Origin: Burkholderiaceae bacterium
Lineage (GTDB): Bacteria > Patescibacteriota > Saccharimonadia > Saccharimonadales > AQU-01
Direction of reading: 5' to 3'
DNA: 64,000 nucleotides
Assembly: GCA_043788365.1 (NCBI GenBank)
Contig: JAYVTZ010000011.1
Coordinates: 31,272 to 95,271, forward strand
The notes beneath the pieces are model-generated. The model did not search any database. It was not told the DNA's origin and saw nothing but the letters and a program-made list of their open reading frames with translations. A program made the translations under genes and the position numbers. Shown here piece after piece: positions 4,119 to 30,896 of the stretch (its first letter is position 1; each line of letters starts with the position of its first letter).

Positions 4119-5003
4119 TTAAATTTTAACTAAAAACGAATTAACTGATATTAGTAGGCTAAATATCAGAAGCGATAAGAGTGAGTAGCCAAACATTTGA
4201 TGCGCCCATTTATCGCTATCTTTTGTGTGATAGCCGCTAATCCCCTTCCATAACCAAAAAAGTCCACTGGCTGACATTACGACTAGATATGTCTTAGAAG
4301 TAAAGCCATAAGCGTATAGTAGAACAGTTGCTACAATAAATGCAATGATATAGCCGATAATCGATCGTTTAGTGGCATTAATACCGCTAGTAATCGAACG
4401 AACAGGTAGTTTGGCGGCTTTGTAGTCTTTTAGCGAATATATGGCAATGGAGTAGAAGTGAGGCATTTGCCAAAAAGTCATAATTAGCAATAGGAGCCAC
4501 GCGCCTCGGTCAAAGCGGCCAGCTACAGCACAGTAACCGGCTACTAGTGCCATTGACCCGGAAACGCTACCGATTATGGTTGAGAAGCTAGTGTGGCGCT
4601 TAGAGACTGCATAAAGCCCAACATAGACAATGTAGCCAATCAGCCCAATCAATAATACCAGGCTATTTAAACCACTAACCAGAACCCCAAAACCAAGTAG
4701 CCCCAAAATGGTTCCGAAAACAAGCGCACACTTACTGGATATTTCACCCGTTATCAGCGCTCGTTTTTTGGTTCGCTTCATCTGGCTGTCGATGTGGCGA
4801 TCAGTATAGTTATTGATCACGCAGCCTGAAGCAATTATTAAACTAATACTAACTAGTGTATAAGCGAGTAAGTTGAAGTTTACATGGCCTTTTGAGGCGA
4901 ATAAAAACCCGGCTATCGCAGTCATTAAGTTACCGCGAATAATACCCGTCTTAGTAAGCGATAGATAGGCCTTGAATTTAGTGACGGCTAAGGCATTATT
5001 CAT
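4119..5003 (-). CDS. cyoE: Protoheme IX farnesyltransferase (heme O synthase)
   Basis: UbiA-fold protein with YLSLTKTGI and NNYTDRHIDSQMKRTKKR motifs; 4-nt overlap with cyoD. Confidence 0.85.
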   Translation of the reverse strand: MNNALAVTKFKAYLSLTKTGIIRGNLMTAIAGFLFASKGHVNFNLLAYTLVSISLIIASGCVINNYTDRHIDSQMKRTKKRALITGEISSKCALVFGTILGLLGFGVLVSGLNSLVLLIGLIGYIVYVGLYAVSKRHTSFSTIIGSVSGSMALVAGYCAVAGRFDRGAWLLLLIMTFWQMPHFYSIAIYSLKDYKAAKLPVRSITSGINATKRSIIGYIIAFIVATVLLYAYGFTSKTYLVVMSASGLFWLWKGISGYHTKDSDKWAHQMFGYSLLSLLIFSLLISVNSFLVKI

Positions 5004-5695
5004 TTTGCAGTTACAGTAAAATCGCCTGTCACTAAGGGATCAAGATGGTCGTGAAACTGATATGTGCCAGTAAGACTAAGAGTGATAGTTTTATTTACGC
5101 CTTTACGTACAGATAGCTCAGACTCGCCAGCGTAAGTCTGGTGCTCTGGGTGTGGTCCGAAGGCAATATCTCGTGGAACGCTATCAAGGTCGATGAATGT
5201 CAAGGTGTCACATTGAGCCGCATTAGTATGAGATGGCGTAGCTTTCCCGGCACTAATTGTAACTGTATGATTTGCTAGGAGCTGCTGGCAAGCACCAGTC
5301 TTCTTGCCGCCGACCTGGTAGATACTTTCTGTCTCGGCTAGTTTTAGTGAGACTTCTGAGGGAGTCATGTTGTAGTGCAAATGACTCATAATAAATATCG
5401 ACCCCCCCACAACTACCAGAATTATTGCAATTGTTGAAACAAAGAAGACAACGTTGTAAAGCGGCTTTGGTCCTCGGCCCAAGTGCAAAAAGAAAAATAT
5501 CTGTACCACCATCTGTATTATGCCAATTCCAACTATCGTAACTAATAGTATCGTACCCGACACTGTATGATTAACTACCAGGTAATAAGGTATGAATGTG
5601 AACAGTAGCGACAATATAAAACCAATGACATAAGATTGCATCGTCCCGTGTTCTTGATTACTGCGCGGTAAGTTACTCATCTCATCAGACTCCAC
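5000..5695 (-). CDS. cyoD: Quinol oxidase subunit IV (CyoD) fused to a C-terminal ~120 aa extracytoplasmic beta-rich domain
   Basis: The first ~108 aa align by eye with CyoD (three TM, ...SHLHYNM). The rest has no TM, two Cys and His-rich strands (HPEH, FHDH). Confidence 0.8.
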   Translation of the reverse strand: MESDEMSNLPRSNQEHGTMQSYVIGFILSLLFTFIPYYLVVNHTVSGTILLVTIVGIGIIQMVVQIFFFLHLGRGPKPLYNVVFFVSTIAIILVVVGGSIFIMSHLHYNMTPSEVSLKLAETESIYQVGGKKTGACQQLLANHTVTISAGKATPSHTNAAQCDTLTFIDLDSVPRDIAFGPHPEHQTYAGESELSVRKGVNKTITLSLTGTYQFHDHLDPLVTGDFTVTAK

Positions 5696-5764
5696 TCAAT
5701 CTTAAAGATTTCGTTTTTTTTATTGCAATCCAGCAGTTATTAACTGCCCTAGAGCCAGCTAAAA

Positions 5765-6376
5765 TCATACAAATGACCTCAAATATACAATAGTGAAAAT
5801 AAATATCCAGACAATATCAAGGAAATGCCAAAACAGGCTGAGCATGGCAAGCTTTCGTATCAGGTGTGAATTTAGACCACGCTTGACGACATAGGCCAGC
5901 GTAATGGCCATCCATAGTAGTCCAGAAGTAATGTGCAGTCCGTGGGTGCCGACTAAGACAAAGAAAGATGACAAGAAAGCGTTACTTTGGATAGTTAGGC
6001 CGTCGTGAATCAGTTTAGAAAATTCATTTAGCTCAAGCCCCAAAAATGATAAACCGAGTACAAACGTAATTGCAAACCACATAAGAGTTTGGCGCTTGTT
6101 CCCACTTCTGGCCGCGATCATTGCGATGCCACAAGTGAAACTACTGGTAAGTAATATTAGGGTTTCAGTTAGTGCTAGGTGTAGGCTGAAGAGCTCCTTC
6201 GCCGACTTACCGCCAAATGTGTTATCGTGTAAAACTGCATAAACAGCGAATAAGACAGAAAACATCAAAAGGTCAGTCATCAAGTAGACCCAGAAGCCAA
6301 ACATTGCCCTATCATTGGCCTCGGCTTCGTGGTGGCTGACCGCTTGTTCTTCTACTTCTTCTACCATTTGCGCCAC
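5765..6376 (-). CDS. cyoC: Quinol oxidase subunit III
   Basis: Five-TM COX3-like protein (...GTHGLHITSGL...FWHFLDIVWIF). Confidence 0.88.
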   Translation of the reverse strand: MAQMVEEVEEQAVSHHEAEANDRAMFGFWVYLMTDLLMFSVLFAVYAVLHDNTFGGKSAKELFSLHLALTETLILLTSSFTCGIAMIAARSGNKRQTLMWFAITFVLGLSFLGLELNEFSKLIHDGLTIQSNAFLSSFFVLVGTHGLHITSGLLWMAITLAYVVKRGLNSHLIRKLAMLSLFWHFLDIVWIFIFTIVYLRSFV

Positions 6377-8451
6377 CTTTTGTTACGAATTACGTCGATG
6401 ACGAATGCGTAAACAACTTTTATAAGATCTCTTAAACCCATTTCTTCGAAATCATCATCACTGGCTTTATGATTGAATGTCTCAGTCTTTTTAATTCTAT
6501 CCTCTTCAAGTTTCTGTACCTCAGCTGCTGTCAGTGTATATTCTGTTTCATCGTTGAATGTGCGCATAACGAAGACAACGATAATACCAACTATCCCAAC
6601 AATGGCTAGCCAAACAATTTCCCAAACAAAAGCAAAACCGACAAGGAATGCAAAGCCGGCGATATAGATGCCTTCAGGAATATTTTTAGGGATGTGGATA
6701 TCTTCGTAGGAGGGTTTAGCAAGGCCTTGATGTTTCATTTCCCAAAATGTATCTTGGGTTGTTACTTCTGGAATAACGGTAAAATTATAGAATGGTGGCG
6801 CTGAGGCAGTTGCCCACTCCAGTGTGCGTCCGTCCCAAGGGTCGCCAGTCGTATCACGATGATGGTTTTTTTGAATAAAGGTGGCTAAGATTTGAGCGAG
6901 CTGCAGTGCCACGCCAAGCATGATGATAATGCCACCAAGAAGCATCATTATAAATAGCGGTTGCCAGCCAGTCGAGGCGTCGTAATGGTCTAGTCTCCTA
7001 GTGGCACCCATAATCCCGAGTACATACATTGGTATAAAAGACATACAGAAACCAATCATCCAGCACCAAAAGGCGTAACGACCAATCCGTTCGTTTAGCT
7101 TGTAGCCGGTAATTTTAGGAAACCAATAGTTAATACCGCAGAAAACACCGAACAGTACTCCACCAACCACCATCGAATGGAAGTGTGCGACTAAAAACAG
7201 GCTGTTATGTAGTTGGAAGTCGGCCGGAGGTACGGCAAGTAGTACGCCAGCTATTCCGCCGATTGCGAAAATAATTACAAATCCAAGGAACCAAAGCATG
7301 GGCGTGTCATAACGTATCCGGCCTTTATACATAGTCGCAATCCAGGTAAAGAATAAAACTGAAGTAGGTATAGCAATTATCATCGTCATGAGACCAAAGA
7401 AAGCGTTCACGTCGGCACCTGCCCCCATCGTAAAGAAGTGATGGAGCCAAACCGATAAAGCAAAGGCCGAAACACCAATCATGCCTACGACGTTAGACTT
7501 ATAGCTGGCGATTGGTTTACGGCTAAACGTTGAGACTACTTCAGAAAAAACGCCAAATGAAGGTAACATCAAAATATAGACTTCGGGGTGACCCCACATC
7601 CAAATAAGGTTGGTATACATCATTGGGTCACCTCCTCCAGTAATTGTAAAGAAGTGAGCCCCAAAATATCGATCAAAAAACATTAAAAATAATGTCATGG
7701 TCAGGAGTGGAAAAACAGTTACGGCCATAATCATGCTGCATAGTGAGCCCCATGTGAACAATGGCATTTTGCCGAGTGTCATGCCAGGCGCACGCATTTT
7801 TAGAATTGTCATAATAAAGTTAATGGCACCGAGTGTCGTACCAATACCAGATATCTGTAAGCTCCATATCCAGTAATCTACTCCTACTCCTGGGCTAAAC
7901 AGCTTACCTGACAGTGGTGCAACAGCTAGCCACCCGGTTGCAGCGTATTGTCCGCCGAACAAGAAGAACATGTTAACCATAATGACTCCGGCAACAAATA
8001 GCCAAAATCCGAGCGTGTTTAAGAATGGTGAGGCTAGGTCACGAGCGCCAATTTGCAGAGGCACAATATAGTTAATTAGGCCAAACACAAAACCCATAGC
8101 GACGAAGAAGACCATGATGTTGCCATGGGCTGTAAAAATTTGCTGGAAGTGGTCAGCCGACAAGTAGCCATGTGAGGCACCAGATGACAGGGCTTGTTGG
8201 AGCCAAATCATTATTGCGTCTAGGCCGCCGCGCAGCAACATGAATCCCGAAACGAGGAAGTACATAATGCCGATTTTCTTCGGGTCAACTGACGTCAGCC
8301 ATTCACGCCACAGCCACTTCCAACGTTTCATCCGAGTTATGACAATTATGATAAGAAGGGCTAGTCCTCCAAAAGCCAAAGTTCCGCCGATAGTAAACCA
8401 TTCGTGCGGTAAGGCCTCTAGGTTCAATTTACCAATTAGTAACTCTTTCAT
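6361..8451 (-). CDS. cyoB: Heme-copper oxidase subunit I (quinol oxidase type)
   Basis: Canonical HCO subunit I motifs (WMWGHPEVYIL, FLVAHFH, HHFFTMG), 696 aa. Confidence 0.95.
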   Translation of the reverse strand: MKELLIGKLNLEALPHEWFTIGGTLAFGGLALLIIIVITRMKRWKWLWREWLTSVDPKKIGIMYFLVSGFMLLRGGLDAIMIWLQQALSSGASHGYLSADHFQQIFTAHGNIMVFFVAMGFVFGLINYIVPLQIGARDLASPFLNTLGFWLFVAGVIMVNMFFLFGGQYAATGWLAVAPLSGKLFSPGVGVDYWIWSLQISGIGTTLGAINFIMTILKMRAPGMTLGKMPLFTWGSLCSMIMAVTVFPLLTMTLFLMFFDRYFGAHFFTITGGGDPMMYTNLIWMWGHPEVYILMLPSFGVFSEVVSTFSRKPIASYKSNVVGMIGVSAFALSVWLHHFFTMGAGADVNAFFGLMTMIIAIPTSVLFFTWIATMYKGRIRYDTPMLWFLGFVIIFAIGGIAGVLLAVPPADFQLHNSLFLVAHFHSMVVGGVLFGVFCGINYWFPKITGYKLNERIGRYAFWCWMIGFCMSFIPMYVLGIMGATRRLDHYDASTGWQPLFIMMLLGGIIIMLGVALQLAQILATFIQKNHHRDTTGDPWDGRTLEWATASAPPFYNFTVIPEVTTQDTFWEMKHQGLAKPSYEDIHIPKNIPEGIYIAGFAFLVGFAFVWEIVWLAIVGIVGIIVVFVMRTFNDETEYTLTAAEVQKLEEDRIKKTETFNHKASDDDFEEMGLRDLIKVVYAFVIDVIRNKRWRKW

Positions 8452-9353
8452 TGTTTTGCCGTCCCGTGATTGTGCGATCCTGAGTATTTGTTTAGTACTT
8501 TATCATAAAGGCCGTTATCGGCATTTGAGAAGATTGCTATTGGATTATTTTCACTTGGCACCAATAACTTGGTGTATTCACTAGTGTCTAATGGGGTCGA
8601 AGACGTCTGAACCTCGCTTACCCATTGGTCAAATTCTAGTCTTGTACTAGCATGGGTAATAAATTTCATGTCGGCAAAGCCAGCGCCATTTATTTCGGCC
8701 GTTCGACCAGTATAATCTCCTGGCGTACTTGCCATGAGATTAAGCTGGTTTATGTGCCCGGTCATGGCGTATAGTTGCCCGCCGAGCTGAGGAATCCAGA
8801 ATGAACTCATTGGCGTCTCGTCAGCTGTTAGTTCAAATTGTATTGGTGTATCAACAGGTACTTGAACATAGTTTATGGTCGAAATGCTCTGTTCCGGATA
8901 AATAAATAACCATTTCCAGCGTAGAGCGACTACTTGAATCTTGAGCGGCTTGTTATCGCTAACAATTAGCTTATGTTGATCAAGCTTATGTGCTGCCGGC
9001 CACATGACTGTAGCCAATATAAGTGCGAAAACACTAGGAATTGCCCAGAGACTAAACACGAAGAACTTTCCGTGATGTGTTGAGGCGTCGTAAGTAGCTT
9101 TTTCGTTAGACTCTCTGTATTTCCAGGCAGTAAAGTAAAGCAAAATAAGTGTAGGGATACCGATTAGTAGCATTAGTGCTACCGAAAACTTAATCAGACC
9201 AAACTGCTGTTCTGCAATTACCCCTTTTGGGTTAAATAATGCAACATTTGTGCCCTGTAGTATCGATGTAATTAGCAGCCCTAACCCCGCTAAACCCAAA
9301 AGAACTCGAGGTACAAACCTGCCGTGATGTAACTTTTTTTGTGGCTTTGCCAT
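8448..9353 (-). CDS. cyoA: Quinol oxidase subunit II (no CuA site)
   Basis: Two N-terminal TM plus a cupredoxin domain resembling E. coli CyoA (SSFWIPQLGGQLYAMTGHINQL...GAGFADMKF). CuA Cys/His ligands absent. Confidence 0.9.
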   Translation of the reverse strand: MAKPQKKLHHGRFVPRVLLGLAGLGLLITSILQGTNVALFNPKGVIAEQQFGLIKFSVALMLLIGIPTLILLYFTAWKYRESNEKATYDASTHHGKFFVFSLWAIPSVFALILATVMWPAAHKLDQHKLIVSDNKPLKIQVVALRWKWLFIYPEQSISTINYVQVPVDTPIQFELTADETPMSSFWIPQLGGQLYAMTGHINQLNLMASTPGDYTGRTAEINGAGFADMKFITHASTRLEFDQWVSEVQTSSTPLDTSEYTKLLVPSENNPIAIFSNADNGLYDKVLNKYSGSHNHGTAKQ

Positions 9354-9606
9354 GATACTCCGTTACCACTATATTAACTCAAGCATTATACAATAGCTAC
9401 ACCACCAGAACTTCATATTTTGTGTATCAAAATAATTATGTTTTGGTATCACTTAACTTTCTTTGCATTAACTTTATATAAACGGACATCTATATAGAGT
9501 AGCAGTGCTAATAACTGCCGTATGGGATTATTTCTCAGTTAAAACTCAATCTAAGGCTCTAATATGTGTCGGTCTAGATGTTATAATAAAATTCAAAAAG
9601 GATAAG

Positions 9607-10683
9607 ATGTATAAAGTAGTCACAAACAATCAGATTACTGCGACGACAAATCTCTTAACCATAAAGCCTGATGATAGTGGTCAGTCAATCAGCTTCACGT
9701 CTGGACAGTATGCAGCTATCAGTTTCTATTCTGAGTCAGGGCGTCCAACGGTTGCGCGTTGCTTTTCAATAGTCAGCTCACCTCTTGATACTGAGAAACT
9801 GCAGTTTAGTATGCGCACATCAGGCCGCTACACTAAGGCCATTAAAAATTTACGGCCAGGAGATAATGTTAAGGTCATGGGGCCGTTTGGTGGTTTTGTT
9901 TTTGATAGCGCGGAGGACCAGGACGCCCTGTTTTTAGCTGGCGGCATTGGCATTACGCCATTTATAAGTATTATCCGATATTTAACGCAGATAAAGTCGC
10001 CTAACAAGATTACTCTAGTTTATAGTTGTCGTCAGCAGGATGATATACCATTTCTAAATGAGTTAATCGAGTTAGAGAAACAAAATCCTAATTTTAAGGT
10101 GGCGTTTGTAATAAGTGAAGGTTCGACCGATACTCTTACCGGCCAACGAGTTGCTAAGGGTCGAATTACGCCTGAGCTGATTGATAACGTTGTGCGCGAT
10201 GGTTACGACACGAAAACCTTTTATATCTGTGGCCCTTCGGCTTTTATGGGTGGCATGACTAAGATATTGCACAGTCGTGGCGTTAAGTCTTTTCAGATTG
10301 TGACTGAAGCATTTAGCCAGGGGTCATTAAAACAAACCGGTAAAATTAAAAGTTGGCCATTTAATATTTACGTCCTCGGTGCAGTTGGTATTGCTCTGGG
10401 TAGTTTTATTGTCACGATTTTTGATGTGCTTAAAACCCTGCCACCGAGTAATTCGACAAGTTCATCAAGTGTTACGGTCGTGCCATCACCAATAAGTACT
10501 CGTCAGTCTGATCTTGACCAACTCGTAAATCAGTTATCTGCTAATGCTAGCACTGGGGTGCCAACTGACCAAGCAAAGAGTGCTCAAAACACACCTCTGC
10601 CAACCACCCAACAACCACCAGCTACACCAGTCCCGAAAGTTATCTGTCGAACTAGCGCAAGTGGTGTCAGGACCTGTTTCTAA
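9607..10683 (+). CDS. FNR-family FAD/NAD(P)H oxidoreductase with C-terminal TM anchor and S/T/P-rich tail
   Basis: RCFSIVSSP (RxYS-type FAD motif), GGIGITPF (NAD(P) motif), YICGPSAFM; then a TM helix from 10354 and a low-complexity tail. Start placed at ATG 9607 (AAGGA upstream) rather than the track GTG at 9505. Confidence 0.75.
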   Translation: MYKVVTNNQITATTNLLTIKPDDSGQSISFTSGQYAAISFYSESGRPTVARCFSIVSSPLDTEKLQFSMRTSGRYTKAIKNLRPGDNVKVMGPFGGFVFDSAEDQDALFLAGGIGITPFISIIRYLTQIKSPNKITLVYSCRQQDDIPFLNELIELEKQNPNFKVAFVISEGSTDTLTGQRVAKGRITPELIDNVVRDGYDTKTFYICGPSAFMGGMTKILHSRGVKSFQIVTEAFSQGSLKQTGKIKSWPFNIYVLGAVGIALGSFIVTIFDVLKTLPPSNSTSSSSVTVVPSPISTRQSDLDQLVNQLSANASTGVPTDQAKSAQNTPLPTTQQPPATPVPKVICRTSASGVRTCF

Positions 10684-11654
10684 TGAAACTGCAGAGCTTC
10701 ACTCAAGCTAAATTAGCTTTAGGCAGCGATGTCTTGCTGACGCTTGTAACTGACAGACCCGTCGGCGACGTTAATCAATTGTTCGATACTCTGTGGATTA
10801 AAATATTTCAATTCGAGCAGCAGTTTAGTCGTTTTCTGCCGAGTAGTGAGCTGTCGGCTTTTAACCGTGCCGCCGGTCTGAAAGCCGCAGTTTCAGATGA
10901 CTTTAGGACTGTATTAAGCGTTGCTAAAAGTTTGGCAGAACAAACAAATGGTCTTTATAACCCCTTCATCTTGCCTGCACTACAGCGATCTGGCTATCAC
11001 CAGTCACAAGTCAAAAAGTATCAAAATGACAAAGTTGATAATTATAGTGACAAAAATGTCGTCACCCATGACCGATTAGTAATTGGTGATGAATGGGCCC
11101 AGATTCCATATGGTACGGCGATTGACTTAGGCGGTATGGGGAAAGGCTACTTAGCTGATAAATTAGCCGAGATAATACCTGACTGGGTTAGCGGTTATTG
11201 GCTATCAATTGGTGGTGACGTCGTCGGAAATGGCAGTGATGAACACAGTAAGCCTTGGCTGGTTGAAATTGACAGTGGTTATGACGAGGTAACTGATTGG
11301 GTTTACCAGAACAACAGCAGCAAGTTTTCAATAGCGACATCCGGAACGACTGTTCATAAATGGACAAAGGATGGCGAGAATAGACATCACATTATTGATC
11401 CTCGTACACTAAAGCCAGCAAGCAGTGACGTTTGGCTTTCGACAGTTGTTGCCCACGATACGGTGACAGCGGATGTCCTGGCCTCGTGCGCTGTTATTTT
11501 GGGCGAAGAACAATCTAAGCAGTTTTTGAAGAGCCACGGCATCGATACATTCATACTTCAAACCGAAGACGTTAACGGCCAAAAGCGTGAATCAGTAGTT
11601 GGGCAGATAACGAGGTCGCTGACACGAGGCACAAGGAAATTAATAAATGCGTAA
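10683..11654 (+). CDS. apbE: FAD:protein FMN transferase (ApbE family), no signal peptide or lipobox visible
   Basis: ApbE signatures (DLGGMGKGYLADK, IATSGTTVHKW, HHIIDPRT). Start overlaps the upstream stop (TAATG). Confidence 0.85.
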   Translation: MKLQSFTQAKLALGSDVLLTLVTDRPVGDVNQLFDTLWIKIFQFEQQFSRFLPSSELSAFNRAAGLKAAVSDDFRTVLSVAKSLAEQTNGLYNPFILPALQRSGYHQSQVKKYQNDKVDNYSDKNVVTHDRLVIGDEWAQIPYGTAIDLGGMGKGYLADKLAEIIPDWVSGYWLSIGGDVVGNGSDEHSKPWLVEIDSGYDEVTDWVYQNNSSKFSIATSGTTVHKWTKDGENRHHIIDPRTLKPASSDVWLSTVVAHDTVTADVLASCAVILGEEQSKQFLKSHGIDTFILQTEDVNGQKRESVVGQITRSLTRGTRKLINA

Positions 11655-13440: not shown

Positions 13441-14010
13441 CTATTCAGTCACGAAATCAGTGCCGTTCCAATGGTAGACGTTAGTTATGCTGTCGGTACC
13501 GCCGGGTGTTTCGATATCGCCCTTCTCTGTCAGTTTTACGCCGCTAATTGACCATGTCGAGTGGTTGAGTCGCTGGGCCGTTGGCACGAACCAGAGTTCC
13601 TGGGGCTGATTTTTAGTGTCGAGTGTCCAAACGGCGGCAAAACTCGACCCAAGTGTTCCGGGGATTTTAGCCCATACGAAGGCATCGGTTATACCATCGC
13701 CGTTAAAGTCAGTGTAGGTCGGCGTAACTCCGGAATCCGTCCAAGCTGTAAAATCGGCCAAGCGACGACGGAAACTAGCGTTTAGTAATCCTGCCGGGTC
13801 TAGCGATTGGATTTGGGCCTGCTTAACTGTTGTCGGTTGCGGTGTTGGTGCGCTTTGTACTGCTGTATTTGTCGGACTTGGTTTTGTTGACTGTGTCTGA
13901 TTATTACTGCTGGCTGGGTTGTTGTGTTTAGAGCCAATAATATATGCACCTCCACCAACTCCACCCAAAACAATCACACTAATTACTATTTGCACGAGTT
14001 TACGATTCAT
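13441..14010 (-). CDS. Membrane-anchored exoprotein with FG-GAP/VCBS-like motif
   Basis: Start moved to ATG 14010 (AGGAG RBS). TM anchor, Pro/Thr/Gln linker, DFNGDGITD Ca-binding-like motif. Confidence 0.5.
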   Translation of the reverse strand: MNRKLVQIVISVIVLGGVGGGAYIIGSKHNNPASSNNQTQSTKPSPTNTAVQSAPTPQPTTVKQAQIQSLDPAGLLNASFRRRLADFTAWTDSGVTPTYTDFNGDGITDAFVWAKIPGTLGSSFAAVWTLDTKNQPQELWFVPTAQRLNHSTWSISGVKLTEKGDIETPGGTDSITNVYHWNGTDFVTE

Positions 14011-14121
14011 ATTTCTCCTATACATCAAGATTGTAGTCTGATTATGGTCACTTATCAAGCATAAGTTAATACTATATCCCAACAGTCTGCAACTCGCAAA
14101 AATTCACAGAATTTTTCACTG

Positions 14122-14364
14122 CTATTCAAGAGTAAGAGCAGTATTTTGTGGATTGTTGACTATCTCAAAAAATCCTGTGTCAGGATCTGCATTAGCTAAA
14201 ACAATCTGTCCTATACTGAGACCAGCGTCTTCCAACTTGCCCGCATCAGCCAATTTTATCTCGGCTATTTCCCATGTTGACCCAGTTGTAGTCCCCCTTG
14301 AGACGTCCTCTCCTGAAGGATGACTCTGCGTTGCTTCGTCATGAGCTGAATGTAATAAAGTCAT
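14122..14364 (-). CDS. Hypothetical protein (80 aa)
   Basis: ORF only; co-oriented with neighbours. Confidence 0.35.
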   Translation of the reverse strand: MTLLHSAHDEATQSHPSGEDVSRGTTTGSTWEIAEIKLADAGKLEDAGLSIGQIVLANADPDTGFFEIVNNPQNTALTLE

Positions 14365-14407: not shown

Positions 14408-15325
14408 TTATAGTAGTTCTTTGTACTTTTGCTGGGCTTCTTGAAGAGTACAAAAATAACCAACGGTTTTGTCGCTAGAGCTCCACTGAAAGAGAACAAA
14501 CTCGTAGACGTCGTTGTTATCGGGTGAGTAGGCGTGATATACGAGTGTACTAGCGATGCCAGGAGTTTGTTGGACTACTATAGGCTTGTGGCCACACGCC
14601 ACGACTGCTGATGCATAGTCCCGCTTGAGTTGTGTTATGTGTGAGTTGTTATTCGCTTCACTCACCATTCCTGAAATTATTATAGCCACAATTAAGAATA
14701 CTATGGCCGCCACAACCACCCACAACCAATGATGTGATTGATGAGTTGTTTGTTCGGTCAAATCACTAGGCTTAATATTGCTATTTGTAATGCCAGTGCG
14801 TTCGGCTTGTGGTTGAGGATGATCAATATTTACTGATGTTGATTGTTGCACTGTTGAGGCTATTGATAGTTTCGGGATAGCGGATTCTGGCTCTAGCGGT
14901 ACAAATACTTCTCTAGTTTGCTTTTCGGATAGCCTGTGAGAATATTTTTTTGAAGAAAGTTTAGATATGTAGCCTAGCATCGTTTCAAGACTAAGTGTCA
15001 CAACGAATGGATACCAAAATAAATAGCCTACTTGATGACGGTTGTCTAAATAGGCAACAATACCTGAAACTACGCCTACAACAGGCGCTAAATATATGCC
15101 TGTCTTAATAAAAGTAGAGCTACGTTTGTCTGGCGATTGAGCAAGTCCCTGATAACCCCTAAAAACAAGTCCACCAATAAGAATTAGGAATGGTATTGCT
15201 AAGAGATAGGCTATGGTTGACCCGAGCTGGCTGATAAAAAGTATGCCAATAGGAAAAACTATAGCGCAGGCTACTGTCAGTAAAACAATAACAGAACTAG
15301 TTTTAAATAGACTAAATTTCGACAT
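14408..15325 (-). CDS. Polytopic membrane protein with C-terminal extracytoplasmic domain
   Basis: ATG 15325 preceded by AAGGAG, which overlaps the end of the Nudix-HD gene. Four TM, linker, a fifth TM, then a ~85 aa domain. Confidence 0.55.
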   Translation of the reverse strand: MSKFSLFKTSSVIVLLTVACAIVFPIGILFISQLGSTIAYLLAIPFLILIGGLVFRGYQGLAQSPDKRSSTFIKTGIYLAPVVGVVSGIVAYLDNRHQVGYLFWYPFVVTLSLETMLGYISKLSSKKYSHRLSEKQTREVFVPLEPESAIPKLSIASTVQQSTSVNIDHPQPQAERTGITNSNIKPSDLTEQTTHQSHHWLWVVVAAIVFLIVAIIISGMVSEANNNSHITQLKRDYASAVVACGHKPIVVQQTPGIASTLVYHAYSPDNNDVYEFVLFQWSSSDKTVGYFCTLQEAQQKYKELL

Positions 15326-15333
15326 ATTCTCCT

Positions 15334-16428
15334 TCAACTCATATTAGCACTATCGATATGATGCCGTAAGTACTTATTGGCAAGCTCTAGACCGATTTCC
15401 CTGCGTAGCTCGACTATTTTGTCAAACTCACCATATTTATAGAGATCACGTTTGATTAAATCTCGTTCACTCTTCAAAAATGAGTCATAGCTGTAGTTTG
15501 CTTTCAAAATGGCTGCCTGATTTGGCATATGAATCAGCAGCACCATCAGCTTATCTACGGCTCTTATGAATCTCGCCTCTGGCACAGATTGATCTTCATA
15601 CTCAGTCATAAACTTCGCATAGCCGGGCATGTGGGCATACTCTTTCAGAAGTTGTTTTAGCCCCTTGGTTTCAAGACGCCGTTTGGCGTCTTGGTCGAGG
15701 TTAGACAAGGCGTCGGTTGGTGTGTCACCGACGTAGGCTTCGATATCGTCGTGTAGGGTAGCGAACCTCGCTACCAGATTTTCATCTAGCTCCGGGTAAA
15801 GTAGGCGCGACAGTTCGGGCGCGACTTTTGCCAGCATCAAGCTATGCTCAGCGACATTTTCGTCCCGGCCATCTGGATGATTACAGCGGGTACGTAAAAT
15901 AGTTGTTTGTCGACTGGCAAGTGCGCCCATTTGGATAGCTATAGACGCGCCAATTGTTAGTCCACTATCGGTGACCGGGATTGAATACAAAAATTTGGTT
16001 TGCTGCCGCTCGTTGGCATACTTACTAACTGTTTTCATTGACTGCTTATTACCGTCAAATTTTAGTAATTTTGCGGCATCGTCGAGGGCGAGCCACCTGA
16101 ATTCGGAGTGTTCCTCACTGTTTATGACAATATCGGTGCTATCGCCCACTTCTACAGCAAAGACATGGTCTTTGCCCATTAATTCATATTCCGTAGATTC
16201 CCAGTTATATATCTCAAGACAGTCGCTGACGTGGAGCGTTGTTGTGATGCCAGCCTCCTCGGCTAGCTCACGAATTAATGTCTGCGTGGCGTCCTCACCG
16301 TCTTCAATTGTACCTGTTATAGCCTGCCAAAAACCGCCGTCACTTGGTACGCGCTTAATTATTAGGAACTCTAAGCCCGCATCTTTGTATCTATAAACTA
16401 CTCCTTGAGCAATATTTGTTGTTCTCAT
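15334..16428 (-). CDS. Nudix hydrolase fused to YfbR-like HD-domain 5'-deoxynucleotidase
   Basis: Nudix box GTIEDGEDATQTLIRELAEEAGI in the N-terminal half. The C-terminal half matches E. coli YfbR landmarks (ENVAEHSLMLA, LHDDIEAYVGDTPTD, IRAVDKL). Confidence 0.8.
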   Translation of the reverse strand: MRTTNIAQGVVYRYKDAGLEFLIIKRVPSDGGFWQAITGTIEDGEDATQTLIRELAEEAGITTTLHVSDCLEIYNWESTEYELMGKDHVFAVEVGDSTDIVINSEEHSEFRWLALDDAAKLLKFDGNKQSMKTVSKYANERQQTKFLYSIPVTDSGLTIGASIAIQMGALASRQTTILRTRCNHPDGRDENVAEHSLMLAKVAPELSRLLYPELDENLVARFATLHDDIEAYVGDTPTDALSNLDQDAKRRLETKGLKQLLKEYAHMPGYAKFMTEYEDQSVPEARFIRAVDKLMVLLIHMPNQAAILKANYSYDSFLKSERDLIKRDLYKYGEFDKIVELRREIGLELANKYLRHHIDSANMS

Positions 16429-16550
16429 AGTCGTCTTTAGATTTATTATACGTCAAATCTCATATTTAGAACCCCAATGCCAAAGAATTGTCGCTTGCCC
16501 TAGTGGACGCACTTCGCAACTTTTAGTTATTAGACTAGTCAATTTACGAA

Positions 16551-16817
16551 TTAATCTTTATGACTTTGGATCCATTCCCCTACAGTAATTTCTTTCATCT
16601 TATCTCTAATAGTTTCCATCTCTTCTGGACTTCTTCGTAATTCAAACATTCTCTCAGCAACAGCACGAGCAAATTCAACACCATTTGCCTGAGCGAATAT
16701 TGTTGGTACAAAAAAACTTTCTGGCCCAAACCCGTTTTCTTCATATACAGCCTGTATCGTTACTGCCTGGTATGCAGCGTGATCAATGTCGCTAATCGGT
16801 AGTTGATTACTTCCCAT
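16551..16817 (-). CDS. Hypothetical protein (88 aa)
   Basis: ORF only. Confidence 0.4.
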   Translation of the reverse strand: MGSNQLPISDIDHAAYQAVTIQAVYEENGFGPESFFVPTIFAQANGVEFARAVAERMFELRRSPEEMETIRDKMKEITVGEWIQSHKD

Positions 16818-16905
16818 CTTATATATTATACACTAATTTAAATCATTTGCAATATATAAATGCTTATGGCTGAGCACACTGGTCTGGAAGTATCGAGTAT
16901 TATTA

Positions 16906-17178
16906 CTAGATAATTCTTTTTAGCTCAGATTGTTGTTTACGTATTGTCTTGCCTGAGAATGGCCCGCCTAATACCGCACTAATATAACAAACATCAAATA
17001 TACCGGCAGTTAGTGGAAAGAAACTCCATAATATAGCTGCGATCCCAAATGGAATGTGACGAAATATAATTCCTATAAATAAAAAACACAAGCCAGCGAT
17101 GAACCTAAAACTCATACCATAGCCACCATTAATCCATCGCGAGAAACCAGACTTATTAAACTTTTCAGAAATATTCAT
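16906..17178 (-). CDS. Small two-TM membrane protein (DUF2892/YgaP-like)
   Basis: 90 aa; two hydrophobic hairpins and a Gly-rich pattern resembling DUF2892. Confidence 0.4.
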   Translation of the reverse strand: MNISEKFNKSGFSRWINGGYGMSFRFIAGLCFLFIGIIFRHIPFGIAAILWSFFPLTAGIFDVCYISAVLGGPFSGKTIRKQQSELKRII

Positions 17179-17292
17179 CTATTTTCAATTTTATGCTTGC
17201 GTAAATAATAATTCAAATGGCTGGGCGTCATGAATGAGTATCGACCTTAATAGTGGTGGACGAAGACGTATGTGGTGCACATATACAATTAG

Positions 17293-17321
17293 TTGACAGC
17301 ATGCTGTCATGACGCTAAAAT
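17293..17321 (+). promoter_or_regulatory. Promoter (TTGACA-17-TAAAAT) with 16-bp perfect palindromic operator
   Basis: TTGACA 17293-17298, TAAAAT 17316-17321. Palindrome TGACAGCATGCTGTCA at 17294-17309. Antitoxin ATG at 17328, so the transcript is probably leaderless. Confidence 0.5.
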
Positions 17322-17327
17322 GTATTC

Positions 17328-17558
17328 ATGACTACAAAAGCAACACTATACCTAGACTCAACAATGTATAAAACAATAAAGATGCGTGCCGTTGAAACTG
17401 GGCAGACTATCTCTGGACTAATGAATGAGGCCCTACAAGCTCAACTTTCAGAAGACCTTGAGGATATCAACTCTATTCGTTCAAGGCAATCTAAGAAAGA
17501 AAAGCCTTTAACCTATGAAGATGCATTAAAAGAGCTTAAGGCCAGTGGTAAAATATAG
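17328..17558 (+). CDS. Type II antitoxin (ribbon-helix-helix-like)
   Basis: 76 aa acidic protein upstream of, and overlapping, a RelE-like toxin gene. Confidence 0.7.
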   Translation: MTTKATLYLDSTMYKTIKMRAVETGQTISGLMNEALQAQLSEDLEDINSIRSRQSKKEKPLTYEDALKELKASGKI

Positions 17559-17802
17559 CGTTCAGATTTTGCCGAGCGTAGTTCGTCACGATCTTATAAA
17601 GTTGCCCAAAAACGAAGTAACTAGAATAATGGTGCGAATTAAATCTTTGGAAAGTGACCCCCGACCAATTTGGTCAAAAAAGCTTTCTGCTAGAGAGGAA
17701 TACCGTGCGCGTCAAGGCAACTATCGAATCTTATATGTAATTGAAGACACTGTAAAAATCGTTCAAATCACCAAGGTCGGGCATAGACGTAACGTGTATT
17801 AA
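17545..17802 (+). CDS. relE: RelE/ParE-superfamily toxin
   Basis: 85 aa; YRARQGNYRILYVIEDTVKIVQITKVGHRRNVY is the typical RelE/StbE C-terminus. GTG start overlaps the antitoxin by 14 nt. Confidence 0.8.
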   Translation: MVKYSVQILPSVVRHDLIKLPKNEVTRIMVRIKSLESDPRPIWSKKLSAREEYRARQGNYRILYVIEDTVKIVQITKVGHRRNVY

Positions 17803-17849
17803 TAAATGGTCAGCTATCGTTGGTTCTGATGGCACCAAACGATAACGAC

Positions 17850-18254
17850 TTAGGTCGGTATTATGGCATACATTGCCTGGCCAGGTAGTTTTGTCCTATA
17901 GCCAGATTTAGCGCCCTGTATCATATTATTTTCGTGCATATTGATCCAGGGGTCCATCCACTGATTTTCATATAACACTAAGTAATGACCAACTGGATAT
18001 AGCCCTGATCTTTCAATGAGTACTATAGTGTAATTAGGAAAGCCTAAGTCGTGTTTTTTTCGAACGTACGTATTTTTATAGCTAAAGCCGTAGCGGTTTA
18101 ATGCATTCGCTAAGTCGCTAGGTCGCCATCCATGTTTCACGCTGTATTCTTTGCCTAAAAACTTCACTGCCTGTTCAAATGTCATACCACACACATAAGC
18201 GAGGCATGCAATTCCGCAACCATAATCTAATTTTTGAGTTACACTTTGTTTCAT
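17850..18254 (-). CDS. Stand-alone peptidase C39-like cysteine protease domain
   Basis: Q-x5-GCGIACLAYV catalytic Cys context, then GHYLVLY...DPW His/Asp context. Confidence 0.6.
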   Translation of the reverse strand: MKQSVTQKLDYGCGIACLAYVCGMTFEQAVKFLGKEYSVKHGWRPSDLANALNRYGFSYKNTYVRKKHDLGFPNYTIVLIERSGLYPVGHYLVLYENQWMDPWINMHENNMIQGAKSGYRTKLPGQAMYAIIPT

Positions 18255-18421
18255 GTTTCCATTCTAGAATTTATAAATATATAAACAACTTTAAATAAAG
18301 TAAGTTTCTGAAAGAGGTCCTTCATAATACTTATGCTCGAGTGGGAATGAGGGGGCTAGAACCTATGCCACCACCTAATCAAACTTGTGATACTTCATTA
18401 CAATATAACAGCGCAGGATAG

Positions 18422-18449
18422 TTGACATCTATTATAATATGTTTATAAT
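18422..18449 (+). promoter_or_regulatory. Promoter-like element (TTGACA-16-TATAAT) for the AbrB/Doc pair
   Basis: TTGACA 18422-18427, TATAAT 18444-18449, ATG at 18459. Confidence 0.45.
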
Positions 18450-18458
18450 TGCCTATAT

Positions 18459-18677
18459 ATGATTGAGACAATCCAAAAACTTATTCAGATCGGATCAAGT
18501 GAAGGCGTCACTTTATCAAAGAAGGACTTGGCAACTCTTGGTGCAAAACGCGGAGATTCTTTAAAAGTGCGAGTTGAATTGGCGGATGGTCATGAAAAGC
18601 ACGACAAACTACTACGTGAATATAGCGCTTTTGTTAACAAATATGGACAAACTTTAAAAAATCTCGCAGACAAATGA
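18459..18677 (+). CDS. AbrB/MazE-fold antitoxin (Phd functional analog)
   Basis: 72 aa; IQIGSSEGVTLSKKDL...GDSLKVRV SpoVT/AbrB-like motif; ATGA overlap with doc. Confidence 0.7.
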   Translation: MIETIQKLIQIGSSEGVTLSKKDLATLGAKRGDSLKVRVELADGHEKHDKLLREYSAFVNKYGQTLKNLADK

Positions 18678-19057
18678 CAGTAAAGTACCTCAGTCTTGAA
18701 GAGTTACTCAGGATACATCACCAACTCATAGAAGATTTTGGAGGCAGTCATGGGGTTCGAGATGAGGGGCGATTAAAATCAGTGATTGTCGCTCCCTCAC
18801 AAGAAGTCTTTGGCCGAGAACAATACGAATCACTATTTGAAACAGCAGCAGTCTATTTAAGAAATATCGTCGGAGATCACCCATTCATAGATGGCAATAA
18901 GCGTACCGGCATCACTGCCTGTGGCATCTTTCTTGCCCGTAATCGACACGGCTTGAGGGCTAATCCTATAGAATTAGAAAATTTTACAGTTAGTATTGCC
19001 ACTGAACATTTAGAAATACCTGAGATTGCAGATTGGTTGCAGGCTCATTCACAATAA
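18674..19057 (+). CDS. doc: Doc (death-on-curing) Fic-family toxin
   Basis: Doc variant of the Fic motif: HPFIDGNKRTG. Confidence 0.9.
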   Translation: MTVKYLSLEELLRIHHQLIEDFGGSHGVRDEGRLKSVIVAPSQEVFGREQYESLFETAAVYLRNIVGDHPFIDGNKRTGITACGIFLARNRHGLRANPIELENFTVSIATEHLEIPEIADWLQAHSQ

Positions 19058-19113
19058 TTCGATAAATAACCACCGATAGTTCTGAGGGTGTTAAACGACT
19101 TTCTATCTCAAAT

Positions 19114-19452
19114 TTGAATCGTCTTAGTGAACTCGTTAGTGATGTACGTGAAATTCCGGAAGCAATAGCCAGTGCAATCGGTAGCGCAGCATATGCACTA
19201 ACCCATTTACGACGCACTTTGGGCGAGAAACGTGCTATTCAGCAAGCAGATACCTGGGTAGAGACTGATAAACTTGAAAATACAGATATTGATGTAACAG
19301 TCTTACACGCTCTAGATGATAAACTTATTTCTTTTAATGACTCAGCAAATGCAGCCGAGCAGAGACAATGGGTGGATTTTGTACCAACCATAGGAGGACA
19401 TAGTAATGTATACGAAGCTGCAGTTCACGACCAAATACTTCGTGCTTTATAA
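19114..19452 (+). CDS. Hypothetical protein (TTG start, uncertain)
   Basis: ORF only. Confidence 0.3.
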   Translation: MNRLSELVSDVREIPEAIASAIGSAAYALTHLRRTLGEKRAIQQADTWVETDKLENTDIDVTVLHALDDKLISFNDSANAAEQRQWVDFVPTIGGHSNVYEAAVHDQILRAL

Positions 19453-19540
19453 CAGAGGTGACTTTATAGGCGTAAAGAATCCGAACTTTATTGTAGCTAA
19501 AAAGTCTACATATACTCCAGTAATTATAAGACAAAATTCG

Positions 19541-19615
19541 TGGCTGGGACGGTAGGATTCGAACCTACGAATGCTGGTACCAAAAACCAGTGCCTTACCA
19601 CTTGGCGACGTCCCA
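19541..19615 (-). tRNA. tRNA-Gln (anticodon UUG), CCA encoded
   Basis: Reverse complement TGGGACGTCGCCAAGTGGTAAGGCACTGGTTTTTGGTACCAGCATTCGTAGGTTCGAATCCTACCGTCCCAGCCA folds as a cloverleaf. Anticodon loop TTTTGGT; closely parallels E. coli tRNA-Gln. Confidence 0.9.
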
Positions 19616-29873: not shown

Positions 29874-30896
29874 CTACTGGTTATACTTTTTGGAATCAAG
29901 CTCTTTTAATAATTCAGTTGCCTTTTGAACACACTGTGTTTTAAGTTTAAGAAATGACTCAGCCTTGTCTACCTTAAAGCCACTTGCATAGACATGTCCA
30001 CCACCACCAAAATTTTTGGCAAGGTCGGCAGCAATAGTAATGCCGTAGCCACAACGAATCGACCCAGTTACTTTACCGCTACTATAGTTTTTTAGTACTA
30101 TAGCGACTTCAACACCTTCAGTTTGTAACATGTCGTTTTGAATCAATGGTGCTGGGTTATAGAGCGGGCTATAGGTCATGATTTCATCATTCGGGACGGT
30201 TACTAGTGCAATCTTACCCTCGGCATGAAGCTCTGTGCGCTCAATCAGTTTGGCTTTGTAACGATAGATAGTCTCGGGCATTTTATTTAGTGCCCGACGA
30301 GCTTCTTCAAGAGCAGGCCTATCAACCCCGTTGTCGATAAGGTCGGCCATAATTCGGTAGGTTTCAGCTGTCGTTCCTTCGCTCGACAAGCCAAGTGAGT
30401 CAGAAAGAATTGAGCTGGCTAGTTGAGTGTTGGCCATTAAATTGAGCTCCCATCCCAGCTGTTTTGCTAAATGATAGATTAGCTCACCAGTTGCAACGGC
30501 TGAGTTGTCATTAATTACGACTGTAGCGTAAGGAATATCACAAGCTACATCTGAGTGGTGGTCAAGAACAATGACAGGATGGCTGGATACCCAATGGATA
30601 TAGTGGCTGTTATTTAACTTTTCAAGTAAGACATTAGCACTGGTATCAACAATAATACTTAAATCAAATTTTGGCGGAATCTCGTTACTTACCCGGTCCC
30701 AGCCCGCTAAATGTTTAAGATAGTCTGGCATGTCTACGGCACAGTAAAGATAACTCTCCTTGCCAAGCTCAACACATATTTGTTCAAATGCCAGTGCGCT
30801 AGCTAAGCTATCGCCATCAGGATTATCGGCTTGAATAATGACAATCGTACTAGCATCTTTAACGAGTCTATCAATCGTACTTATATTATCGTCCAT
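29874..30896 (-). CDS. nrnA: DHH/DHHA1 phosphoesterase (NrnA-like oligoribonuclease/pAp phosphatase)
   Basis: DGDSLAS, LDHH and GGGH motifs. Confidence 0.8.
   Translation of the reverse strand: MDDNISTIDRLVKDASTIVIIQADNPDGDSLASALAFEQICVELGKESYLYCAVDMPDYLKHLAGWDRVSNEIPPKFDLSIIVDTSANVLLEKLNNSHYIHWVSSHPVIVLDHHSDVACDIPYATVVINDNSAVATGELIYHLAKQLGWELNLMANTQLASSILSDSLGLSSEGTTAETYRIMADLIDNGVDRPALEEARRALNKMPETIYRYKAKLIERTELHAEGKIALVTVPNDEIMTYSPLYNPAPLIQNDMLQTEGVEVAIVLKNYSSGKVTGSIRCGYGITIAADLAKNFGGGGHVYASGFKVDKAESFLKLKTQCVQKATELLKELDSKKYNQ

Follow-up and report, generated by a model that had tools for sequence, protein, structure and literature searches.

A Nudix–HD fusion gene in a Saccharibacteria strain encoding a candidate bifunctional nucleotide hydrolase

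The fusion gene and its flanking genes

We analysed a 64,000-nucleotide stretch of DNA (hereafter the window), in which a gene encoding 364 aa combines a Nudix domain with an HD_3/YfbR-like domain (15334..16428, (-) strand; TGA stop codon at 15334-15336). Pfam domains of both kinds on this single open reading frame bear out the original prediction, made from the sequence, of a Nudix hydrolase fused to a YfbR-type HD domain. The start of the gene is backed by the alignment of its N-terminus to stand-alone Nudix homologues, and an in-frame stop codon lies 9 codons 5' of it. A perfect TATAAT hexamer, a putative -10 element, was found 16 nt upstream of the ATG (16445..16450, (-) strand) with no properly spaced -35 element, and a consensus scan called no promoter at this hexamer. 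The 122-nt leader of the fusion gene contained no Rfam element, riboswitch or stable structure, and no paralogue of the gene was found within the window.

The fusion gene is followed by a gene for a polytopic membrane protein of 305 aa (14408..15325, (-) strand), as identified by gene callers, hydropathy and sequence. It probably starts at the ATG at 15325, which the gene callers also chose, and not at a TTG at 15337. The ribosome-binding site had been placed within the last codons of the fusion gene; the Shine-Dalgarno sequence AAGGAG (15329..15334, (-) strand; 3 nt before the ATG) instead comes directly after the TGA and overlaps it by no more than one base, its first base being the last of the stop codon. 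The co-expression claimed on that ground nevertheless holds, since only an 8-nt gap separates the fusion stop from the ATG of the membrane gene, which is therefore almost certainly co-transcribed with the fusion. Kyte-Doolittle hydropathy gave 4-5 transmembrane (TM) segments where five had been counted, with three to four N-terminal TM segments, a polar linker of ~75 aa, a TM segment at about residues 200-222 and a C-terminal domain of ~80 aa. This protein had no homologues among 5.8 billion protein clusters and no Pfam, PADLOC or PHROG matches above cutoffs, and its gene was not found beside any of the related HD or Nudix genes examined. We conclude that it is a strain-specific ORFan that is co-expressed with the fusion; because it lacks detectable homologues, a conserved system of fusion and membrane protein, and with it the functional coupling first proposed, is unsupported.

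Upstream of the fusion gene are the two toxin-antitoxin (TA) modules noted in the original prediction, RHH+ParE at 17328-17802 and antitoxin+Fic/Doc at 18459-19057. Directly upstream of the fusion is a low-GC, TA-rich patch adjoining tRNA-Gln, and no att-like repeats or integrase were found near this tRNA gene. The description of the locus as an accessory stretch suits this patch, but not the placement of the HD gene relative to the cytochrome oxidase operon, which is common to other Saccharimonadia.

Such surroundings, together with a weak match between PADLOC candidate PDC-S07 and the Nudix half (33.9 bits) and a net reaction that would resemble dNTP removal of the SAMHD1 type, are what could be expected of an anti-phage gene that depletes dNTPs from within a defence/TA island, possibly along with the membrane protein. 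However, the PDC-S07 match is at the generic Nudix level, the HD half and the membrane protein match no PADLOC-DB model, and a sensor or regulatory domain is absent. The close stand-alone orthologues of both halves lie amid housekeeping genes, HD has an ancestral position with respect to the cox operon and the membrane protein has no relatives. We found no positive support for dNTP-depletion defence and consider the suggested role very improbable.

Domains and active sites of the two halves

The Nudix domain spans residues 1-143 (16000..16428, (-) strand) and was assigned to an Ap4A-hydrolase/NudB-like clade by Pfam, NCBIfam, AF2 and Foldseek. It matched the Pfam family NUDIX (PF00293) over residues 9-124 with E=8.4e-15 and 55.4 bits against a gathering cutoff of 21.1. 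The Nudix box GTIEDGEDATQTLIRELAEEAGI (residues 39-61; 16246..16314, (-) strand) agrees at every defined position with GX5EX7REUXEEXGU, as had been read from the sequence, and contains R53, E54, E57 and E58, where E54 and E58 were invariant and R53 and E57 nearly so among 29 Nudix homologues. The two halves of the fusion were modelled separately by AF2, each as its own domain. The Nudix half formed a complete domain with a pLDDT of 97, and its fold neighbours in Foldseek included the Ap4A hydrolase 1ktg (TM 0.83) and NudB (TM 0.78), the TM values to solved Nudix enzymes reaching 0.83-0.88.

The best NCBIfam model for the Nudix half was the NudB equivalog NF006961, the score of which (73.8 bits) was under the cutoff of 103; this model also scored best, each time under its cutoff, for all 29 members of the Nudix clade, and by this equivalog test the half would not be classed as NudB. 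Because the half resembles Ap4A hydrolases as well as NudB, its substrate need not be specifically a dNTP. The NudB affinity, seen in the models and in the structural closeness alike, could fit a role in the folate pathway, in which the Nudix domain would make dihydroneopterin monophosphate from the triphosphate and the HD domain would be the long-unassigned monophosphate phosphatase. This reading is opposed by the sub-cutoff score, by the lack of folate-biosynthesis genes beside the fusion gene or in any homologue neighbourhood examined and by the presence in the HD half of the R and D with which YfbR contacts deoxyribose. To our knowledge, Saccharibacteria are also without cofactor biosynthesis, and we give a folate function very little credence.

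The HD_3/YfbR-like phosphohydrolase domain occupies residues 146-364 (15337..15993, (-) strand), as delimited by Pfam, alignment, AF2 and Foldseek. It matched HD_3 (PF13023) over residues 176-321 with E=2.8e-18 and 66.8 bits (cutoff 22.5) and the YfbR-like family PF12917 with 29.7 bits (cutoff 25.9). The YfbR landmarks recognized in the original prediction were recovered, with ENVAEHS at residues 190-196 and LHDDIEAYVGDTPTD at residues 225-239. In an alignment with the genuine E. coli YfbR, residues R18, H33, H68, D69, E72, D77 and D137 corresponded to R179, H195, H226, D227, E230, D235 and D292 of the HD half, showing that the catalytic residues, which the prediction had allowed might be missing on proper alignment, are present. 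From roles described in reviews, including PMC8177086, H195, H226, D227 and D292 are predicted to be metal ligands, E230 to be catalytic and R179 and D235 to contact the sugar and phosphate; the four ligands and E230 were invariant in 19 HD homologues.

The only YfbR site residue missing is W19, in the position of which the HD half has T180, as in HDDC2. Of the determinants for a strict 5'-deoxynucleotidase, the equivalents of R18 and D77 are thus kept and that of W19 is not, which leaves the half outside the YfbR type, and the NCBIfam YfbR equivalog scored 19.2 bits against the fusion with a cutoff of 122. The AF2 model of the HD half was a complete domain (pLDDT 92.7) with 3kh1, HDDC2, 1xx7 and YfbR as its best Foldseek matches. 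Both active sites of the fusion are intact, as are the two folds.

Origin of the fusion and association of Nudix and HD genes

Alignment with stand-alone homologues located the junction at residues 141-148 (ERQQTK followed by FL; 15985..16008, (-) strand), where the natural C-terminal tail of a Nudix protein meets the first conserved HD motif, FLYSIP, with no linker. Stand-alone HD proteins begin with 7-14 residues that the fusion lacks, and no ATG, GTG or TTG was found within it 5' of the conserved HD N-terminus, the closest Met being M169, which is within the domain. The fusion is known from a single Saccharibacteria strain, as might be expected if a sequencing or assembly error had merged two adjacent genes, but the junction is in frame, the HD half has no separate start codon, and two sequencing runs with different accessions, assembled separately, gave DNA for the fusion gene 100% identical to that of the window. 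The fusion is therefore no assembly artefact, an explanation to which we attach next to no probability, and is genuine in this strain.

We then asked how common the architecture is, as the original prediction had proposed. Among 142 matches from a full-length search of 5.8 billion clusters, the query alone had both domains in one protein, and none of the best 150 of 3524 HMMER matches from 1.84 billion representatives was a Nudix+HD fusion. Representatives matched in two stretches were HD-HD or Nudix-Nudix tandems, with DUF6011-HD and similar multi-domain types also found. No Nudix+HD fusions were found in phage and plasmid records, and HD matches on Ti plasmids had no Nudix gene close by. The other homologues were separate HD (~220 aa) or Nudix (~141-145 aa) proteins from Saccharimonadia. 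The combination of Nudix with a YfbR-like HD domain is rare, with no second example found, and essentially unique; what is new is the domain arrangement, both families being already known. On balance, we lean towards the view that two separate Saccharimonadia genes were recently fused end to end, in this lineage only, to yield a bifunctional nucleotide hydrolase.

The neighbourhood conservation suggested as a check was not seen. The Nudix and HD genes lie apart in the relatives closest to either half, and across 8 neighbourhoods and 28 genome loci no partner gene was conserved near the relatives, and neither the membrane protein nor the small flanking ORFs had a homologue beside them. Stand-alone HD relatives are surrounded by housekeeping genes, and HD gene neighbourhoods vary strongly among relatives. 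At several loci, a different Nudix gene, encoding a wHTH+Nudix protein with an intact box, adjoins the HD gene: in three of them (L015, L016 and L021) the overlap with the start of HD is 11-26 nt, and in three others (L047, L051 and L052) HD comes directly after the wHTH+Nudix gene. This adjacency is a minority arrangement (3 of ~27 HD loci; 3-4 of 22 wHTH-Nudix loci) and involves another Nudix subfamily (~30% identity). The overlap with the HD gene lends independent, modest support to a functional link from Nudix to HD. A recurrent, so far unrecognized two-step module in Saccharimonadia that takes nucleotide to nucleoside, realized as a fusion here and as overlapping wHTH-Nudix and HD genes elsewhere, is a tentative proposal that we consider possible.

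Because the fusion is present in one strain only, it may be selectively neutral. A deletion or rearrangement could have joined two unrelated working enzymes that go on acting independently on different substrates, in which case the fusion would carry no pathway information, and its confinement to one strain, the unlinked genes in the closest relatives and the highly variable HD neighbourhoods all point this way. Against such an accident, genes of a second, unrelated Nudix subfamily overlap this HD gene independently in a number of diverged lineages, and the NMP product of one reaction belongs to the substrate class of the other. We judge a neutral joining to be rather unlikely.

Proposed function and comparison with known systems

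For the favoured bifunctional hydrolase, we infer the substrates, a sequential order of action and a role in the cell as follows. The Nudix domain would cut a nucleoside polyphosphate, (d)NTP or Np4N, to release a nucleoside 5'-monophosphate, from which the HD domain, of the HDDC2/YfbR 5'-nucleotidase family, would strip the last phosphate to give the nucleoside. For a (d)NTP, the net reaction would be (d)NTP + 2 H2O -> (deoxy)nucleoside + PPi + Pi, and dephosphorylation of the NMP would make removal of the nucleotide irreversible. The two-step route from NTP through NMP to nucleoside proposed in the original prediction is plausible. YfbR and YGK1 are dNMP phosphatases that work through an H...HD...D site (PMC8177086), and an HDDC2-like enzyme of T. 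brucei acts as a phosphatase on both dNMPs and NMPs but leaves diphosphates untouched (PMC5098729), so that an upstream NMP-producing enzyme is needed. Nudix enzymes are a major class of nucleotide-pool sanitizers, above all where salvage feeds the pool (PMC12887539), and the fusion may serve to remove or turn over unwanted nucleotides, whether damaged, excess or non-canonical, in an organism dependent on nucleoside salvage.

A special case of this model would be pyrimidine interconversion of the kind known from T. brucei and from the deoxycytidine pathway of E. coli, in which dCTP would be converted through dCMP to deoxycytidine for cytidine deaminase, thymidine kinase and dTMP synthesis. YfbR is currently annotated as a dCMP phosphohydrolase and functions in this E. 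coli pathway (PMC8475336), deoxypyrimidine NMPs are favoured by the HD enzyme of T. brucei (PMC5098729) and 22 of the 29 Nudix-clade members weakly matched the model of NudG, a pyrimidine (d)NTP diphosphatase. However, the NudG scores were far under the cutoff (~31 vs 156 bits), and no cdd, tdk or thyA was found among the annotated genes of the window, which makes this special case improbable.

Nucleotidases of the HDDC2/YfbR family are found in all three domains of life, and little is known of their physiological inputs. The fusion and the independent Nudix operon overlaps offer a concrete hypothesis, that NMP made by a Nudix enzyme is removed by the HD enzyme. If the recurrent module were real, the fusion would be a Rosetta-stone link naming the upstream partner of HDDC2/YfbR-family 5'-nucleotidases, and it would point to a dedicated route of sanitation or turnover in obligate nucleoside-salvaging symbionts. 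Saccharibacteria have to salvage nucleosides from their host, and a Nudix–HD route could help to keep their dNTP pool clean. The significance of the fusion itself is limited by its confinement to one strain.

Among known systems, E. coli YfbR (PDB 2PAQ), HDDC2, yeast YGK1 and the T. brucei HD 5'-nucleotidases have the HD_3/YfbR-like Pfam families in common with the HD half. The YfbR/HDDC2 group shows the same mononuclear H...HD...D metal site, catalytic Glu and deoxyribose-contacting Arg and Asp. The HD half has ~25% identity to YfbR and is nearer to 3kh1 and HDDC2, and where Trp19 of YfbR excludes ribonucleotides it has Thr. Unlike this group, it has a clade-specific N-terminal FLFxxP segment, a longer C-terminal helix and a Nudix domain in front.

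On the Nudix side, the Ap4A hydrolases (C. elegans 1KTG and human NUDT2) and E. coli NudB have the same fold (TM 0.78-0.88) and an intact Nudix box but only 22-27% identity, and the C-terminal HD domain is found only in the fusion. NudB, a pyrophosphatase of dATP and dihydroneopterin triphosphate under the equivalog cutoff of which the Nudix half falls, also has the FWQxxTG motif in common with it. Mycobacterial MutT1, which also came up as a structural neighbour of the Nudix half, likewise combines a Nudix sanitizer with a C-terminal phosphatase-type domain in one polypeptide. Its second domain, a SixA-like histidine phosphatase of the RHG type, acts on phosphoproteins, whereas the fusion has a metal-dependent nucleotidase of the HD type, with a Pfam match to HD_3 and none to His_Phos in its C-terminal domain; because of this difference, the likeness is analogous and not homologous. 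Finally, the small HD triphosphohydrolases OxsA and DatZ (the latter of phage S-2L) and the SAMHD1-type dNTPases are HD enzymes by which (d)NTPs or their analogues are broken down to the nucleoside, and all are distant and weak structural neighbours of the HD half (E ~1e-2). These enzymes use the HD domain alone and release PPPi or sequential phosphates, whereas the fusion has a separate Nudix domain for the predicted pyrophosphate step.

Structure and integrity of the fusion gene

Two tightly packed genes lie on the minus strand of the window at positions 14408–16428, of which the upstream one (15334–16428) encodes a 364-aa protein. The original prediction of a Nudix domain fused to a YfbR-like HD domain was borne out for this protein. 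Pfam placed a NUDIX domain at residues 9–124 (E=8.4e-15) and an HD_3 domain at residues 176–321 (E=2.8e-18), the Pfam YfbR-like model passed its cutoff (29.7 bits against 25.9), and the Nudix box at residues 39–61 fits GX5EX7REUXEEXGU exactly. Residues of the HD half were equated by alignment with Escherichia coli YfbR (yfbR gene), for which the roles of the metal, catalytic and sugar-contact residues have been assigned (PMC8177086). The metal ligands H33, H68, D69 and D137 correspond to H195, H226, D227 and D292, the catalytic E72 to E230, and the sugar contacts R18 and D77 to R179 and D235. The exception was W19, which sterically excludes ribonucleotides in YfbR and is replaced by Thr180, with Thr also present in human HDDC2. 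The presence of both domains is far beyond chance.

Two sequencing runs (SRR22198267 and SRR23617268), each assembled separately, gave contigs with the same fusion gene and 100% identity to the window over 9–11 kb, which argues against an assembler artefact and also means that all evidence for the fusion comes from one strain. Two features set the start of the fusion: alignment with the N-termini of stand-alone Nudix proteins, and a stop in the same frame nine codons before it. No start codon for a separate HD product was available in the gene. At the junction, the Nudix portion keeps the C-terminal tail that such a protein naturally has (...KYANERQ), which is followed directly by FLYSIP, the earliest motif conserved across the HD family; the 7–14 N-terminal residues preceding this motif in stand-alone HD proteins are missing. 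Judged from the sequence, the fusion is seamless and end-to-end, without a linker.

Rarity of the architecture and recurrence of Nudix-HD adjacency

A whole-fusion query of 5.8 billion clusters matched 142 proteins, and among the matches listed the query alone contained both domains, the other 119 being stand-alone HD proteins of about 204–299 aa (37–76% identical), all from Saccharimonadales where a source was named. The Nudix-half query returned 16 stand-alone proteins of 118–145 aa (51–63% identical) and did not return the 364-aa fusion, although it was present in the searched database; a search that works by word index may overlook targets far longer than its query, so negatives from half-protein queries are weakened. 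An exhaustive scan of 1.84 billion representatives, run in HMMER with the fusion as query, gave 3524 matches, the best 150 of which included no Nudix-HD combination. Seven of these 150 had two matched stretches with lengths fitting HD-HD or Nudix-Nudix tandems, as Pfam confirmed for the four checked, and six other long single-stretch matches contained one of the domains without the other. Among phage and plasmid records, none matched across both halves. Within the matches listed and the best 150 of 3524, and very distant or oddly clustered fusions aside, the architecture is apparently unique.

The closest stand-alone HD genes were found in varied, mostly housekeeping settings (prmC/prfA, pth/topA, RNase Y/YmdB and HAD/Exo_endo_phos), and the closest stand-alone Nudix genes were located elsewhere, never adjoining an HD gene, so the fusion did not simply arise by stop-codon loss between conserved neighbours. 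In three loci of other Saccharimonadia, the gene immediately upstream of HD encodes a separate winged-helix Nudix protein (wHTH-Nudix) of 210–234 aa with an intact Nudix box (L015:5292–5996, L016:5298–6002 and L021:27–659), which shares only about 30% identity with the Nudix half of the fusion; the family also occurs in loci L047, L051 and L052. It has an N-terminal winged helix (DUF7347/HTH) and a C-terminal Nudix domain, the reverse of the domain order in NrtR-type regulators, and may be a ligand-sensing regulator-enzyme. In all three loci the 3' end of wHTH-Nudix overlaps the HD start by 11–26 nt, and such an overlapping pair would offer an easy path to fusion, one small frame-restoring deletion being enough. 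Among 22 metagenome loci matched by the wHTH-Nudix query and with room downstream, HD was directly downstream in 3, and in a fourth it lay no further than about 0.85 kb away; the HD sequences at these loci were quite diverged. The Nudix-HD association thus recurs, yet as a minority pattern, and the adjacency lends a functional link independent support of moderate strength.

Genomic setting

The window is ordinary chromosome of a Saccharimonadia (Saccharibacteria) bacterium, with genes for CysRS, DnaB, DnaX, RecR, L10 and cell-wall enzymes and with a cluster for a haem-copper oxidase. HD, COX2, COX1 and COX3 follow in the same order on one strand in L015, L016 and the window (COX2, 8448–9353; COX1, 6361–8451; COX3, 5765–6376; all minus), with an HD-COX2 gap of 2.5–5.5 kb in L015 and L016 and 6 kb in the window. 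Given this shared order, the HD half appears to occupy a position common to other Saccharimonadia, not freshly acquired DNA. The oxidase cluster (4119–11654), with a UbiA/haem-O-synthase-like gene (4119–5003) and flanking genes for a ferric-reductase-like FAD/NAD protein (9505–10683) and ApbE (10683–11654), points to aerobic respiratory or O2-detoxifying capacity in this Saccharibacteria genome. The only other nucleotide-phosphohydrolase-type gene among the ~40 window genes with a Pfam scan or precomputed Pfam matches encodes a DHH/DHHA1 protein of the NrnA-like nanoRNase/pAp phosphatase type (29874–30896).

The predicted accessory stretch with toxin-antitoxin modules was borne out in part, upstream of the fusion, as a low-GC patch (0.35–0.41; 16400–19615) beside tRNA-Gln (19541–19615, minus); for the fusion gene, GC content is typical and the HD position apparently shared. 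The patch contains RHH and ParE (17328–17802), an antitoxin with Fic/Doc (18459–19057), a 134-aa C39-peptidase-like protein (17850–18254), a 90-aa YgaP-like membrane protein (16906–17178) and small ORFans, and neither an integrase nor att repeats were found there. The suggested dNTP-depletion defence gained no positive support: the one PADLOC match of the fusion (34 bits) was at the generic Nudix level, to a candidate not validated as defence, and since both halves have housekeeping-type orthologues and a sensor domain is absent, the prior for this role is low.

The downstream gene encodes a 305-aa membrane protein (14408–15325, minus) with 4–5 hydrophobic segments. Its start is most likely the ATG at 15325, also picked by gene callers, which lies 8 nt past the fusion TGA. 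From this spacing and an AGGAG directly after the stop codon, the two genes are almost certainly co-transcribed; the proposed co-expression therefore stands, while the ribosome-binding site follows the stop codon and is not inside the last codons of the fusion. For the membrane protein, no homologue was found in 5.8 billion clusters, no family match was above cutoff and no counterpart was present beside any related HD or Nudix gene examined. Its coupling to the fusion as a functional system is accordingly not supported, and we found no basis for a conserved partner. Two further minus-strand ORFans downstream, one of 80 aa (14122–14364) and one of 189–213 aa with a TM segment at its N-terminus and a linker rich in Thr, Pro and Gln (13441–14082), had no family match and no homologue in any compared locus.

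Proposed function and relation to known enzymes

The model of the Nudix half (pLDDT 97) was nearest to the solved Ap4A hydrolases 1ktg and NUDT2 (TM 0.83–0.88), followed by NudB (TM 0.78), with Listeria 3son and mycobacterial MutT1 as further neighbours; profile comparison placed 3son, NUDT2 and NudB on top. The NCBIfam NudB model was the best match for all 29 Nudix clade members but stayed below its cutoff for the Nudix half (73.8 bits against 103), so several candidate substrates remain, namely (d)NTPs such as dATP, Ap4A and, less probably, dihydroneopterin triphosphate. Cleavage of any of these leaves a 5'-monophosphate. The HD half (pLDDT 93) was closest to 3kh1, HDDC2 and archaeal 1xx7/2cqz, with YfbR next and yeast YGK1, OxsA and phage DatZ more distant. 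Those members of the group that have been characterised are phosphatases acting on (d)NMPs. An HDDC2-like Trypanosoma brucei enzyme accepts dNMPs and NMPs, and not diphosphates (PMC5098729).

From the observed domain identities, intact catalytic residues and genomic associations, we infer that the fusion is best understood as an enzyme of two activities, nucleotide pyrophosphatase and 5'-nucleotidase, in which the Nudix domain would release NMP and the HD domain would dephosphorylate it, for a net conversion of (d)NTP to nucleoside, PPi and Pi. Saccharibacteria are salvage-dependent. Salvage lets damaged nucleosides into the pool, making sanitation critical (PMC12887539). On both grounds, the most economical role would be to turn over unwanted nucleotides or to remove them irreversibly. 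A narrower variant, a 'deoxycytidine pathway' from dCTP to dC, is possible, its one basis being the weak NudG-like similarity of the Nudix clade; YfbR has a known role in that pathway (PMC8475336). Under the broader bifunctional reading, the fusion provides a testable Rosetta-stone hypothesis. It is a genuine joining of two known enzyme families in one Saccharibacteria strain, and thus a new arrangement of known families, not a new type of system.
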